A stretch of 64,000 nucleotides of DNA from a virus (IMGVR_UViG_3300014720_000003:1-64000), one strand, 5' to 3'. Counted from the stretch's first letter, positions 22,491 to 35,749 are shown. Notes: generated by a model not told the origin, from the sequence alone. Translations and numbers: made by a program.

Positions 22491-22826
22491 AAATAAGGGT
22501 GGCAGGGCGGCCGATGCAACTACTAATCGTGCGGGAGTTAGTAGATGGCTAGTAGGTGGCATAACTAGGAAGATCATAAGTGTGATTTAGAAATAACAGA
22601 ATTTTATACAAACTCTTTCACTCTTTTATCCATCCTAATAGTAGTCATAAACCCTTACAGGATAGGCACTTACATCCATTGTATCGTCCACGCTCCAGGG
22701 TTGCAACCAGCATATTTAAGATTCTTTCGCAAAGTTTCCCCAATCGCAACCTTAAGAAATTGTAATTTGACATTTTGGCAGGCCGGGCGGCCGATCTGCC
22801 ATTTTGGCAGTCAACATATGAACGCA

Positions 22827-22860
22827 GAAAAGCCGCCGCAGGATTTCTCCCACGGCGGCT
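22827..22860 (-). terminator. rho-independent terminator
   Basis: AGCCGCCG stem / CGGCGGCT followed by TTTT, downstream of the DUF932 gene. Confidence 0.7.
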
Positions 22861-22888
22861 CTCACCGCGACACCCCACGAAAGGAAGG

Positions 22889-23833
22889 TCAAATAGCGTT
22901 GGCAAACTCCAGGGCACTTTCCAACGCCTTATTATTATCGTTAGCGTTCTGGCCGAACCAGAGGCTATCGAGACGATTATCAGTAGTGCGACCCTTACCA
23001 TAGTTCAGGTACTCGTTGAAGCCATTATAAGCGGCCCACCAAGTACCAGCCACACCAACCGCACTCTGCTTCGGACCCTCGATACGGGCCAGAATATCGT
23101 CCATAATATTACGGGTACGAGTCTTAATATCCTCGTCAGCACCCTTAATATTCAGCACAATCTTAACATACTTCTCAATATCCTTCTGGTTGAACTGCTT
23201 GGTAGCCAGGAAACGATACTGTTCCGCAGTAGCCTCAAATCCAGCGTTAATATTGTCCATAACATCACGCACCGTTTCCAGATTCTTCTGGCTGGAGCGG
23301 GTATGACGAATACGGATCAGTTTACTATCATTATGCTTGTGGGCATAAGACAGTGTATTAACACACACAACACGAATCGGGGTATAACCCACGCGAATAG
23401 CAGTCGAGCCGTCGTGACTATTACTCAGCAGGATAAACTTGCTGACCTCATCACCGCGAACAATCTCGCTGTTATCACGATTCAACTGAGCAAGCACCCA
23501 AACCTTCTGACCGCTATGAAGCGATCCGGCAGTATGAATAGCACACTCATTAGCATCCAGAAACGGCTGGAACCAATCAAAAGCATCCTTATTCTGGAGA
23601 GGGGTATAACGCGGACCCACAACGCCCAGGATACTACCATCGGTCTTACGATAGGTTGCACGATGGTTAACGGGTGTACCGTCAACAGTCTGCAAATCCT
23701 TCAGGCCGACTTCCCAATCTAGACCAGCCTCAACAATAGCGTCGTTAATCGTGACGCCCTCATCAACCTTGTTCCCCAGGCCGTGCCAGGGAGTCTCACC
23801 GACAAACATCATCTTCTCAACAGCAGCAGGCAT
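22889..23833 (-). CDS. DUF932 / TIGR03299 phage-plasmid protein
   Basis: PWHGLG, LGVVG.RY.PLQN, TAGSL..G.KVW, NSHDGS, PIRVVCVNTL. Confidence 0.92.
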   Translation of the reverse strand: MPAAVEKMMFVGETPWHGLGNKVDEGVTINDAIVEAGLDWEVGLKDLQTVDGTPVNHRATYRKTDGSILGVVGPRYTPLQNKDAFDWFQPFLDANECAIHTAGSLHSGQKVWVLAQLNRDNSEIVRGDEVSKFILLSNSHDGSTAIRVGYTPIRVVCVNTLSYAHKHNDSKLIRIRHTRSSQKNLETVRDVMDNINAGFEATAEQYRFLATKQFNQKDIEKYVKIVLNIKGADEDIKTRTRNIMDDILARIEGPKQSAVGVAGTWWAAYNGFNEYLNYGKGRTTDNRLDSLWFGQNANDNNKALESALEFANAI

Positions 23834-23876
23834 AATCAACTCCTTCGTGGTTAGTGTCACTCGCTTCGATGCACTG

Positions 23877-23917
23877 ATTCTACCATAGGTTATCGGCAAG
23901 TCAACAGGGCGGCTTGA
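23877..23917 (-). promoter_or_regulatory. composite early promoter
   Basis: TTGACT-16-TAGAAT plus TCAA-N16-GCCGATAA. Confidence 0.75.
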
Positions 23918-23972
23918 AAGTTTTTTGTCTGCCATTTTGGCAGCCGGGCCGGCCGCTCTGCCATTATGGCAG

Positions 23973-24470
23973 TTAGGTAATATTCAGGAGAGGAACTCCC
24001 AAATCACGTTGGCACAATTTAGAACCATCAATGTTAGAGTGATAAGCACACTCATCCGGCATATAGCAATAAACTCCAATGCATTTTGCCATTGGGATTT
24101 CTTCTTTGATAAGATTTTTAATACGACGAACTGTGCTTCCACTACAGATGAGATCATCAATAATGATATAACGATAGGGAGATACTCCCTCAATTTTAAA
24201 AGAACTATAAGATCGTTCATTTTTTCTAACCACAACAATATGTTTATCAAGCAACTCTGCGATTTGTGGAACCACCATCAATCCGCTAGTACCACAGCAC
24301 GCGATACTATCAAAATCATTGATAATTTTTCTAAGATTACAAACAGCACGAATAATAATCTTGTTTCGTGTTTTATGATTCAGAATAAAAGAGGTATGAT
24401 TAGAACCTTGAATATATCTACCATCATTCATTTGACGATGAGCATCAATATCAGAGTCAAGAATATTCAT
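23973..24470 (-). CDS. type I phosphoribosyltransferase-like protein
   Basis: PRPP-binding motif YIIIDDLICSGST; VVVRK. Confidence 0.85.
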   Translation of the reverse strand: MNILDSDIDAHRQMNDGRYIQGSNHTSFILNHKTRNKIIIRAVCNLRKIINDFDSIACCGTSGLMVVPQIAELLDKHIVVVRKNERSYSSFKIEGVSPYRYIIIDDLICSGSTVRRIKNLIKEEIPMAKCIGVYCYMPDECAYHSNIDGSKLCQRDLGVPLLNIT

Positions 24471-24474
24471 AAAA

Positions 24475-24565
24475 AGCGGATGGTACGATTTGAACGTACT
24501 AAGAAAGGAAGATAAAGCGTATTATGGCTTATAATAGAATACTTGTCCCACCAAGTTGCATCCGC
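24475..24565 (-). pseudogene. tRNA-like element / pseudo-tRNA
   Basis: Perfect acceptor GCGGATG/CATCCGC and T-arm GTACG-TTCAAAT-CGTAC; non-canonical D, anticodon and variable regions. Confidence 0.6.
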
Positions 24566-33522: not shown

Positions 33523-34103
33523 GATGCTTTGCTCCAAAGGATTACTGACTGTACCAAAAAACTTTTTTGACCACAACCCCCATTCTGGGGGACTACCATC
33601 CATTCTGTCGACAAGTCTCATCCCACGAATCCTGTTCACGACGCTGGCGGTCACTCATCGGCTCGTCACCCGGGCACCATTCATCTTTAGCAGCATCGTA
33701 GGCATCGTCGGAATAATCGTACGATCCAACTTCACAATGTTCGCCACAACGCGAGCAAATATCCTGAAACCGAACTTCCGCACCACAGCAATCACTCAGC
33801 ATTTTTCACTCTCCGTTTCTTTCTTTCTTTCTATATCGGATTATACGGTCTGAAACTTGAAAAGCAAACCGAAAAAAATCGGGAGAGAAAAATATTTTGT
33901 GGCACAATATTTGCTGGCGCGATTTTGGTACAAGATTTGCTAGCCTGCCATTTTGGCAGTTCGCGCGGCCGATCTGCCATTTTGGCAGTCTGGCTGACTG
34001 TCATTATGGCAGCCAGCCGATAGGATCGGCTAGAACACCCCCCTAGAGGGGTAGAGCCCCACCCCCCCCTATTGGTGGGGATACCCCCACGTACATTTGT
34101 TCA

Positions 34104-34301
34104 CTACTTAGCGTGAATGAACACCCGTTCACTCACCGTACGAGCGGTCAACGTAATGATCCAGTTATTACCGCTACCATCCTCCCGCACGATTCCGTTC
34201 ACCAATCCACAGTGAGCCTTACCCTTGGGATCAATCACTCCAACATACTTACCAGTTCGCATAGCGGAAAAAATCTTATCAAGGTTATTTGTGTTCATCA
34301 T
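34104..34301 (-). CDS. hypothetical protein
   Basis: Second gene of a tandem cassette; AAGGA RBS. Confidence 0.65.
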   Translation of the reverse strand: MMNTNNLDKIFSAMRTGKYVGVIDPKGKAHCGLVNGIVREDGSGNNWIITLTARTVSERVFIHAK

Positions 34302-34365
34302 TCTTTATTCCTTCACGGGTAGTCCCCCAACGGGGGGAGGGTTGGTCCTTCCATCCATCGGGGGG

Positions 34366-34632
34366 TCAACCCGCCCCGACACTCTCCAGCATATCGCGGC
34401 GGGTCTTACCCTCGGGCCAGTATTCGGTGACGATGCACGTGTAGTGGTGCATGTTCTCCATGTAGAACGTCTTATACTCGGTCGTGCCGTTGGGGCCGAC
34501 ACTGTGGAGAACAACCCGACGACCCTTGGGGCCGTCGACCACACTCTCCACCACGCCGACGAACAGCCGATCATCACTCTTGCGAAAGCCACAGAACGCA
34601 CGACCAACAACCACGTTATCCATTTTCATCAT
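34366..34632 (-). CDS. hypothetical protein, paralog family A
   Basis: VG.AF.GFR..D.R.FVG.VESV...PKG shared with 35750-36031. Confidence 0.75.
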   Translation of the reverse strand: MMKMDNVVVGRAFCGFRKSDDRLFVGVVESVVDGPKGRRVVLHSVGPNGTTEYKTFYMENMHHYTCIVTEYWPEGKTRRDMLESVGAG

Positions 34633-34939
34633 CCTTCAACTAGGGGTTATCTTCAACTCTGCCACGATTATACAGTAGAGTATCGGTAAAGCAAACGGAA
34701 AAAAATAGAGGAAATATTTTTGCGATTTGGCACAGGATTTGCTGTTGCCAATTTGGCAGGGATTTTGGCATGATATTTGCTGCATCTGCCATTTTGGCAG
34801 TTCGCGCGGCCGATCTGCCATTTTGGCAGCTTGGCTGACTGTCATTATGGCAGCCGATAGGATCGGCTGATACACCCCCCCTGAGAGGGGTAGAGCCCCA
34901 CCCCCCTATTGGTGGGGATACCCCCCTCGGTGGGGGCCA

Positions 34940-35137
34940 CTATTTGGTGGGGGTAGTTCCTATCCTCAACCCCTCCCCCCTTTCCAGTCTCCTGACTAGA
35001 TAATCGTAGTCGTCCGTTCTGAACAATTGAACACCATCGGTATTTTTCACGAGCCATTCCCGACAATGCCCGGTCCAACGGCTGTCGATTTGCAGATTGT
35101 GACGATTTGCGAGGATTTGTAGCGTAGCGTTGGTCAT
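34940..35137 (-). CDS. hypothetical protein
   Basis: Second gene of a cassette; TAAGGA RBS. Confidence 0.55.
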   Translation of the reverse strand: MTNATLQILANRHNLQIDSRWTGHCREWLVKNTDGVQLFRTDDYDYLVRRLERGEGLRIGTTPTK

Positions 35138-35204
35138 GATTTTTTCCTTAGGGGTTAGTCCCCCAACGGGGGGAGAGTATGATTGTTCCCGCCGTTGTCC
35201 AGAA

Positions 35205-35426
35205 TCACGAGATATCGACATTCCAGTATTCTACGTTGTCGCACTCGTCGAGATAGAGCGTAGCATACTTAGTCTGCTTCCACTCCCGATCCCAGTTTGC
35301 GACCACGATCATGATGCCACGATCACCCATGTCGCGGACCTTTTCGATCCATCCGTCGAAATACTTGCCGTCGCGGCGACGAGTGGCGAAAAACTGCTGG
35401 AGGGGCTTCGGGGTATCGGCAATCAT
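35205..35426 (-). CDS. hypothetical protein, divergent paralog family A
   Basis: RRDGKYFDGWIEKVR...G..IV....Y.T.YL. Confidence 0.65.
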   Translation of the reverse strand: MIADTPKPLQQFFATRRRDGKYFDGWIEKVRDMGDRGIMIVVANWDREWKQTKYATLYLDECDNVEYWNVDIS

Positions 35427-35749
35427 GTTTCTATCTTTCTCTGCTAGGGGTTTCATTCTCAACTCTGCCATTGTTATATCATCTAGTATCGGCAAATCAA
35501 ACGGAAAAAAACAGCGGAAATATTTTTGCGATTTGGCATGATATTTGCTAGGGCAAAAACTGTGCCGAAAAAATTTTTGCGATTTGGCATGATATTTGCT
35601 GCATCTGCCATTTTGGCAGTTCGCGCGGCCGATCTGCCATTTTGGCATGTGTCTGCCATTTGTTGTATGGCACAACATTTGCTACTGCCGTTATGGCAGT
35701 TTTCTAGCCTGCCAGTTTGGCAGATACAATATCTCCCCCGATGGGGGGT

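Follow-up and report, generated by a model that had tools for sequence, protein, structure and literature searches.

What is the function of a palindromic sequence that recurs, in pairs of invariant spacing, between the early genes of an uncultured freshwater phage? The DNA in question is the genome of a siphophage (IMGVR_UViG_3300014720_000003), a single contig of 138,480 bp, whose initial 64 kb (positions 1–64,000, hereafter the window) were analysed. The palindrome, or dyad, falls in the initial 13 kb of leftward, presumably early, transcription, in a cassette array whose composition differs between related phages. Two dyads and the spacer between them form a 44-bp element, which lies at the boundaries of the early cassettes and at which homology between relatives breaks off. 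We tentatively read the dyad pair as the core of a site that a protein recognises and at which cassettes are joined and exchanged, serving a modular shuffling similar to that proposed for the promoter-early stem-loops (PeSLs) of T4-type phages, with traits reminiscent of integrons.

Paired dyads in the early cassette array

Exact matches to the dyad TGCCANNNTGGCA number 22 in the window, where 0.01 are expected and none of 100 shuffled sequences reaches 22; with up to one mismatch allowed, 35 matches are present, against 1.35 expected. The whole genome contains 37 sites at up to one mismatch, 32 of which make up the array at 22768–35722. The other five (at 17157, 45274, 65845 and 84419, plus one more) are single, carry one mismatch and occur at chance level. 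An earlier note, made from the sequence alone, had described fourteen paired dyads at an invariant spacing of 29 bp, and the pattern counts confirm this. The 14 pair starts, the half element at 24940 and the five extra single dyads are given in the list below. The same note had placed the dyads only in a GC-richer cassette region, which holds genome-wide; the G+C content (GC) is 41–51% between 22 and 36 kb, versus 31–37% on both flanks.

Anatomy of the element and its position between units

The conserved unit is the 15-mer CTGCCAAAATGGCAG, read on the minus strand, which is the coding strand in the array. The centre of the dyad is asymmetric, with AAAA in the same orientation in every copy; the earlier note had missed both this feature and the 15-mer. 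On the minus strand, the 44-bp element reads CTGCCAAAATGGCAG, six nucleotides, CG, six nucleotides and again CTGCCAAAATGGCAG. Each junction starts at the end of the upstream unit, with its stop codon or a terminator-like hairpin, followed by the first 15-mer, the 14-nt GC-rich spacer, the second 15-mer, an A/T-rich UP-like tract and a promoter (TTGACA, a spacer containing GCCGATA, and TAGAAT), after which come a 5' leader and the next gene or tRNA. The features of the array are listed here; motif B is a second repeated motif and joint ends are cassette joints in metagenome contigs, both described further on.

22600..36320, minus strand: the hyperplastic early cassette array as a whole, with leftward units of 0.4–1.8 kb, 7 tRNA genes and a GC of 41–51%
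22768..22809, minus strand: junction element 1, last of the array, after the intrinsic-terminator-like hairpin of a DUF932 gene
23930..23971, minus strand: junction element 2, directly past the stop codon of a phosphoribosyltransferase (PRTase) gene; downstream promoter 23904–23877
24940..24952, minus strand: half element (single dyad), after a tRNA cluster; downstream promoter 24915–24888
25762..25803, minus strand: junction element 3, directly past an HNH gene
26804..26845, minus strand: junction element 4; promoter 26778–26751; joint ends 26804 and 26859
27880..27921, minus strand: junction element 5; promoter 27866–27838; joint end 27879
29015..29056, minus strand: junction element 6; promoter 28999–28972
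30112..30153, minus strand: junction element 7; motif B 30093–30107 (plus strand); promoter 30060–30033; joint end 30063
30494..30535, minus strand: junction element 8; promoter 30479–30452; joint end 30538
31578..31619, minus strand: junction element 9; promoter 31551–31524
32251..32292, minus strand: junction element 10, with the most diverged dyads; sense motif B 32241–32255 (minus strand), overlapping the second dyad; promoter 32223–32196
33058..33099, minus strand: junction element 11; promoter 33041–33014; joint ends 33058 and 33101
33946..33987, minus strand: junction element 12, first of three tandem cassettes of about 830 bp; motif B 33900–33914 and 33926–33940 (plus strand); extra dyad 33999–34011
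34787..34828, minus strand: junction element 13; motif B 34728–34742 and 34766–34780 (plus strand); extra dyads 34746–34758 and 34840–34852
35606..35647, minus strand: junction element 14, closest to the divergence point; motif B 35534–35548, 35585–35599 and 35668–35682 (plus strand); extra dyads 35686–35698 and 35710–35722
36149..36163, plus strand: motif-B-like TGGTAT-N5-TTGCA, with no dyad pair; it precedes the first leftward promoter (36103–36068) and lies about 200 bp short of the first rightward gene (36363)

Between 24.7 and 33.1 kb, 17 minus-strand promoters match the consensus at 11–12 of 12 positions, with A/T tracts between the dyad and the -35 box. The proposal that the dyads lie upstream of strong sigma70-type early promoters, within a shuffled cassette region, is supported.

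Conservation and a second element type

The exact pair pattern (26 specified bases) is present at 115 loci on 55 IMG/VR contigs of 4–224 kb from uncultured viruses, so the motif is conserved in relatives. Among 144 unique copies, the spacing is exact in 134, the first dyad in 108 and the second dyad in 117. Five complete relatives (G001–G005, 150–224 kb) keep 17–34 dyads each, on a single strand and in one cluster of 9–20 kb, while a control pattern read backwards gives 0–1. The large terminase (TerL) of these relatives is 68–78% identical to that of the phage described here, and because the element has been kept despite this divergence, its sequence is evidently under strong purifying selection. 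It is confined to the cassette array in all six complete genomes. In 364 dyads, positions G2, C4, G10 and C12 show 0–1 changes; the right half of the dyad is more variable than the left (52 versus 15 changes). The spacer is free in sequence and GC-rich, has CG at its centre in 139 of 182 unique copies, and displays no self-pairing register beyond this dinucleotide.

Terminase relatives in IMG/VR number at least 596, and the best 80 were used to follow the element further. Only 12 of these 80 loci have the TGCCA-type dyad (type A). At the equivalent position, many other loci contain a type B element, in which two GTAAR/YTTAC palindromes surround a GC-rich spacer of 12–22 nt (38 unique copies from 17 loci, including L133:1-7000 and L148:1-6400). 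The element type does not follow the terminase tree or the genome backbone: L133, of type B, has a terminase 83% identical to that of our phage, closer than the type A relatives G001–G005. A switch of type with constant architecture, unlinked from the backbone, points to a co-varying partner that is phage-encoded rather than a host factor, and judged from these sequences the cognate binding protein is probably encoded by the phages.

The host side agrees with this. In 185,579 prokaryote species genomes, one per species, the pair pattern has only two matches. One (L116) is a 1.8-kb phage fragment mis-binned in a metagenome-assembled genome (MAG). The other (L117:2001-2042, in a Clostridia MAG from sheep gut) contains the 13-mer twice with 29-bp spacing inside a small open reading frame (ORF), where it is a tandem coding repeat (SAKMALK), and was judged a coincidence. 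The suggestion that the dyads are sites for a hijacked host factor is not supported, given these two isolated matches and the switch of dyad sequence between sister phages. In the papers searched, strings of the dyad motif turned up only as unrelated primers.

Proposed exchange of cassettes at the element

When contigs of four lake metagenomes were compared with the array, different cassettes were found joined at the starts or ends of dyads or at the edge of the -35 box. Joints from 30063 to 26804, 31905 to 27879, 33101 to 26859, 31905 to 33934, 30538 to 22833 and 34037 to 33058 are among the 15 listed of 149. Foreign A/T-rich linkers lie between the joined parts, and because of these foreign letters the joints that go back along the array are taken to be rearranged relatives, not circles. 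Relatives differ in which cassettes are joined at the edges of the element. Homology also breaks there. Of 353 starts of high-scoring segment pairs (HSPs) between the window and 69 related segments, compared all against all, 66 are no more than 10 bp from the first dyad; of 317 HSP ends, 66 are located 40–69 bp past the start of the first dyad, just beyond the second. Recombination anchors for cassette shuffling, one of several roles envisaged earlier, are the option that best fits these joints and homology breaks.

When the 182 unique elements are sorted by their flanks, the left six spacer nucleotides and the CG travel with the upstream gene, while the right six are often unrelated, so that hybrid spacers are present: GCGGCG-CG, for example, is combined with CCCGGA, CGATTT or GCCGGA. 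In pairs of elements that share the upstream but not the downstream flank, 23 breaks are located after dyad 2, 18 at the centre and 3 at dyad 1. The corresponding counts for a shared downstream and different upstream flank are 43, 15 and 10, the 43 being inflated by conserved promoter-side motifs. Expressed as minimal events, dyad 1, centre and dyad 2 are hit 11, 14 and 17 times in the first comparison and 15, 23 and 22 times in the second. As the centre, with about 2–6 shared nucleotides, breaks as often as the identical 15-bp dyads, homology-driven recombination alone should not suffice.

The spacer halves suggest a two-fold design. The pool of left half-spacers overlaps that of the reverse-complemented right half-spacers by 0.33, compared with 0.05–0.06 in controls, and such mirror-image pools indicate that the element is built of two inverted half-sites. 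The two halves of one element are less complementary than random partners (4.36 versus 3.90 +/- 0.10 mismatches), and none of the 182 spacers is palindromic. This low complementarity within elements suggests that each site is asymmetric, like directional recombination sites, and that long perfect palindromes are avoided.

Several points speak against an exchange site. Breaks at the dyads are by themselves no proof of an active system, because any conserved repeat attracts homologous recombination. The counts of breaks at the centre derive from only 27 and 22 flank families, their pairs are non-independent and point mutation may account for some of the differences. Elements with a common downstream flank agree only weakly in the right half-spacer (25 of 73 pairs, versus a baseline of 9%). 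A palindromic centre such as the CG is unusual in crossover sites of serine recombinases, and a transcriptional role would be equally compatible with the fixed orientation and with the two short classes of distance to the -35 box. Neither a recombinase, integrase, transposase or HUH enzyme nor, specifically, a Resolvase or Recombinase domain was found in 129 proteins of at least 100 amino acids (Pfam), 30 array ORFs (Pfam and PHROGs) and 63 further proteins (PHROGs), a search that left ORFs below 100 amino acids outside the array unscanned. No element-binding protein was identified among the candidates examined.

A more specific form of the proposal is a dedicated integron-like system, in which an unrecognised site-specific recombinase or nuclease would bind both dyads of the 44-bp site, a directional one, and swap strands at its central CG, the types, at least two (TGCCA-type and GTAAG-type), defining which phages are able to trade early, probably counter-defence, genes. 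In this full form we regard it as unlikely.

Promoter distances, motif B and a possible operator function

An element whose orientation never varies, and which is always followed by an A/T-rich UP-like tract and a sigma70-type promoter, could also be a pair of upstream operators or enhancers. A dimeric protein, phage-encoded or from the host, would then occupy both dyads and activate, repress (in early shut-off) or insulate each immediate-early promoter, and the breakpoints would be a passive by-product of conservation. We consider this explanation a serious rival, only somewhat less probable than an exchange site, for reasons that lie partly in the promoter distances.

The two classes of distance from the dyad centre to the TTGAC box described earlier are found at the nine sites named for them: 20–23 bp at 27880, 29015, 30494 and 33058, and 31–34 bp at 23930, 24940, 26804, 31578 and 32251. 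These nine of 14 window sites, in classes about 11 bp apart, suit an operator, as does the fact that the same two classes are the main ones among the 182 copies: the second dyad is separated from the -35 box by 20–24 bp in 13 copies and by 29–34 bp in 62. Others are at 55–62 bp (21 copies), 72–82 bp (7), 87–88 bp (5) and 96–103 bp (10), and in 57 of the 182 a clear promoter is absent. In the window too, the TTGAC box is about 58 bp away at 30112 and about 80–95 bp away at 33946, 34787 and 35606, and there is no clear -35 box at 22768 and 25762. Helical phasing in the strict sense, as the earlier note had it, is therefore not supported: no single helical turn underlies the classes near 21, 32, 60, 74, 88 and 98 bp as a common multiple, the longer ones being out of helical register with 21 and 32. 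The steps appear to be set by inserted modules rather than by whole helical turns, which makes the phasing local and no rule. Furthermore, six promoters of the same class outside the array (at 228, 4012, 16067, 17394, 19045 and 134522) have no dyads, and the element is consequently no general part of that promoter class.

Motif B (TTTGGCAY-N5-TTGCT on the plus strand) stands beside the pair, 3–7 bp away, in 63 of 182 copies, four junctions of the window among them; the other ten of the 14 window pairs have no adjacent motif B. With motif B and variant dyads, motifs containing TGCCAAA are stacked between pair and promoter in these 63 copies, like arrays of binding sites, which again favours an operator. 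The strict form TGGCAY-N5-TTGC is present eight times in the genome, always within the array. Seven of these copies are on the plus strand, against the direction of the genes, and are turned towards the dyads; looser ones are found at 33926 and 36149. In relatives, 84 copies are antisense and 13 sense, and the motif is common to type A and type B arrays. The -24/-12 consensus of sigma54 promoters is TGGCAC-N5-TTGCW, which we take motif B to match. It may be a rightward promoter, a binding site, or both; use of sigma54 by a phage, or mimicry of its site, would be unusual.

The analogy with NtrC-type enhancers drawn in the earlier note remains a resemblance. Like NtrC sites, the dyads are in tandem, about 30 bp apart, and in the 63 copies mentioned they stand beside a -24/-12-like motif. 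The orientation, however, is wrong for an enhancer and its promoter: the motif points away from the cassette gene, towards the dyads, where a sense promoter downstream would be required. The genes of the array are served by sigma70-type promoters, and no gene for an AAA+ sigma54 activator was found in the phage, the only hit being a weak side match from its RuvB-like AAA+ protein.

Conservation at the sequence level and the switching of types would suit an operator and its regulator. An operator leaves unexplained, on the other hand, the exchange at the spacer centre, the two-fold half-spacer pools and the avoidance of palindromes; the pair is absent from candidate host genomes, and no regulator was found in the phage. 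The element may serve both roles, exchange and operator or insulator.

Candidate binding proteins beside the array

The neighbours of the array are a PARG-like protein, a GcrA-like protein, a sigma-like protein, a 269-residue helix-turn-helix (HTH) protein, ERCC4 and TerL; there is no tyrosine integrase among them. The genes conserved between array and terminase (for the GcrA-like, sigma-like, 269-residue HTH and ERCC4 proteins) follow the terminase phylogeny. The first three were rejected as binders, as they are conserved with both element types and follow the backbone and not the dyad type, which also counts against an operator read by one of them. The 269-residue HTH protein may be the small terminase. 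The GcrA-like HTH gene (37170–37379, minus strand, 69 residues) is the first leftward gene in all relatives; the microbial-type PARG-like gene (36363–37187, plus strand), which here lies between it and the array, is absent from 22 of 22 relatives checked.

Two paralogous genes at the start of the array (35750–36031 and 34366–34632, minus strand) encode small beta-barrel proteins of about 90 residues, which are found in 20 type A contigs and in none of the type B loci. This family was nevertheless rejected as binder: it is missing from the array of G002, and its structural model (predicted local distance difference test, pLDDT, of 91) has only weak matches to Sm/Hfq or L19-like folds, with E-values of about 0.01. 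A protein atlas search gave nothing above 0.88.

Passive repeats and RNA-level functions

The uniformity of the elements might also result from concerted evolution of a selfish or passive repeat, a promoter-plus-dyad module that spreads by duplication and gene conversion with no dedicated binding protein. Three tandem, diverged cassettes of about 830 bp at 33.9–36.1 kb show that duplications have taken place, and short homologies are enough for recombination-rich phage replication, as discussed in the PeSL work (PMC2839356). Concerted evolution acts within genomes, however, and cannot hold a 15-mer and a 14-nt spacing constant across 68–78% TerL identity while the spacer sequence diverges; the invariant dyad positions indicate selection. 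We judge a purely passive repeat to be improbable.

About equally improbable, in our view, is a function at the RNA level, in which the 44 nucleotides, present in read-through early transcripts, would fold into an interrupted hairpin of about 17–20 bp and act as an RNase III-like processing or 3'-stabilising site between cassette messages, as in the early region of T7. Read-through is likely, many junctions being without a terminator, and all eight junction RNAs examined (four junctions, both strands) fold into a long hairpin (-22 to -31 kcal/mol, z-scores of -0.8 to -3.7). Compensatory changes are lacking, however: the sense-strand variants comprise 58 A.C versus 13 G.U pairs, plus about 50 other mismatches. 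A stem would need neither the conserved sequence, nor the spacer length, nor the asymmetric centre, and the spacer has no pairing register beyond the central CG. For the type B elements, RNAalifold predicts zero consensus pairs. The element is also located upstream of each unit's own promoter.

Three further readings were rejected: hairpin promoters for an N4-type virion RNA polymerase (the giant ORF encodes a tape measure and no single-subunit RNA polymerase was found in the phage), a spacer hairpin (no consistent pairing register) and an intrinsic terminator (no U tract in the sense direction, the antisense U-rich centre being absorbed in the long hairpin). A terminator scan flags single dyads sporadically, 16 being found where 12.4 are expected, and the terminator-like hairpin at 22840–22870 is separate from the element.

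Comparison with known systems

The closest described system is that of the PeSLs. According to Arbiol et al. 2010 (PMC2839356) and Comeau et al. 2014 (PMC4122927), PeSLs are found in hyperplastic regions of T4-type phages and consist of a strong early promoter with an A/T tract and a terminator stem-loop; recombination between copies shuffles orphan genes and yields mini-circles, and a specific DNA-binding protein is the subject of speculation there. Measured against those descriptions, both systems consist of repeated, composite intergenic modules flanking orphan genes in hyperplastic early regions, with a near-consensus sigma70 promoter, an A/T-rich upstream tract and a conserved dyad motif; in both, the modules mark the ends of insertions, deletions and replacements that distinguish relatives. 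The differences are considerable. The present phage is a siphovirus with a tape measure of 3949 residues and not a T4-type myovirus. In place of an adjacent terminator stem-loop of the form G(n)-loop-C(n), the junctions appear from their sequence to have two identical 15-bp dyads and a 14-nt GC-rich, asymmetric spacer of fixed length with a central CG. Even at genera-level divergence the element is preserved base for base; there are two or more specificity types of it, and the points of exchange appear to lie inside the spacer, where homology is minimal.

In its organisation the array resembles integrons and their attC sites: it has one orientation, its cassettes are short and of mixed composition, each ends in an imperfectly symmetric repeated site with a variable centre, and exchange appears to occur within the site. 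Here, however, no integrase was found, the cassettes have their own promoters and the phage is apparently lytic. While attC sites are recognised as folded single strands, the 44-bp element is fixed in length (in the 134 of 144 copies given above) and conserved in sequence, and its spacer does not pair.

Crossover sites of serine recombinases (hix, res site I and the att sites of large serine integrases) contain two inverted half-sites of about 21 bp and a conserved central dinucleotide, at which hybrids are joined. What may correspond to these features here are the CG in 139 of 182 copies, the half-spacer overlap of 0.33 against 0.05 and the hybrid spacers, counts that are small and non-independent. 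The palindromic nature of the CG, the presence of a palindrome within each half-site and the lack of a detected recombinase gene set the present element apart.

The Streptomyces phage phiC31, which is temperate, has a repressor that binds conserved inverted repeats (CIRs), single operators near repeated early promoters. The likeness is that an inverted repeat peculiar to the phage recurs at many early intergenic sites, next to promoters that are themselves repeated. In the apparently lytic phage described here, the repeats come in pairs around a GC-rich spacer and fall at the cassette boundaries.

The phage genome and the genes of the array

A rightward block of genes (36.36–72.84 kb) comprises the tape measure, the large terminase (39717–41747) and further structural genes, while the rest are transcribed leftward, in a course that begins near 36.1 kb, passes position 1 and continues from 138 down to 72.8 kb. 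The tape measure gene (53314–65163, 3949 codons) extends beyond the end of the window; at 1.5 Å per residue, its product presumably corresponds to an exceptionally long tail of about 0.6 micrometre. The replication and recombination genes encode a split Pol III alpha, DnaB, primase, SSB, RecA-like and RuvB-like proteins, two endonuclease VII-like proteins and ERCC4. Several HNH and GIY-YIG endonucleases, two sigma70-family candidates, rIIA/rIIB, a transfer-messenger RNA (tmRNA) and 8 tRNAs are also present. The tmRNA gene (1292–1649, minus strand) encodes the tag peptide GNNQLALAA and neighbours a tRNA-Ile(tat) gene (1741–1815). The region is present in public runs of lake and freshwater DNA metagenomes; a megablast of the array against 50,697 phage records gave no match.

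Besides its 7 tRNAs, the array encodes a DUF932 protein, a phosphoribosyltransferase, an HNH endonuclease, a protein with the carboxy-terminal domain of ribosomal protein L7/L12, GP88-like and Kyano_Gp96-like proteins and orphans. The L7/L12 domain (Pfam E-value 3.6e-9) is encoded by the cassette gene at 26858–27214 (minus strand), whose product may be a translation-factor decoy or takeover protein. In the three tandem cassettes (33900–36300), where the local GC is 51%, there are many C5-7-N4-G5-7 hairpins (for instance at 36175–36240, 34014–34088 and 34851–34925), which recall the G(n)-loop-C(n) stems of RB49 PeSLs. A conserved sequence of about 55 nt with an AATCC-GTA-GGATT hairpin is located directly after tRNA genes and before a dyad (22435–22490, 24939–24994, 27661–27712 and 30140–30195); it may be a tRNA trailer or processing signal. 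Rfam models at gathering level detect tRNAs only.

Proposed role and significance

In the exchange-site reading that we tentatively prefer, the 44-bp element would close each early cassette and precede the A/T tract and promoter of the next. A putative protein, probably phage-encoded, would recognise the double-stranded element sequence-specifically, with one dimer per dyad. Cassettes would be cut out, inserted or swapped between co-infecting relatives at the element, often with the exchange point at the central CG. The role of the element would thus be comparable to that proposed for PeSLs in T4-type phages and to that of attC sites in integrons. The neighbouring promoter may also be affected, by insulation or modulation.

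The junction site is far more defined than a PeSL: its length is fixed, its design two-fold and its spacer asymmetric, and it comes in two or more specificity types. Should a new recombinase or nuclease be involved, site and enzyme would be a pair of interest as a tool. Early hyperplastic regions hold the fastest-evolving genes of phages for host takeover and counter-defence, and we know of little beyond the PeSL proposal for T4-type phages on how such genes are traded without wrecking their regulation. The element described here may be part of the answer for a very common group of uncultured freshwater phages, which has at least 596 terminase relatives in IMG/VR and genomes of 138–244 kb.

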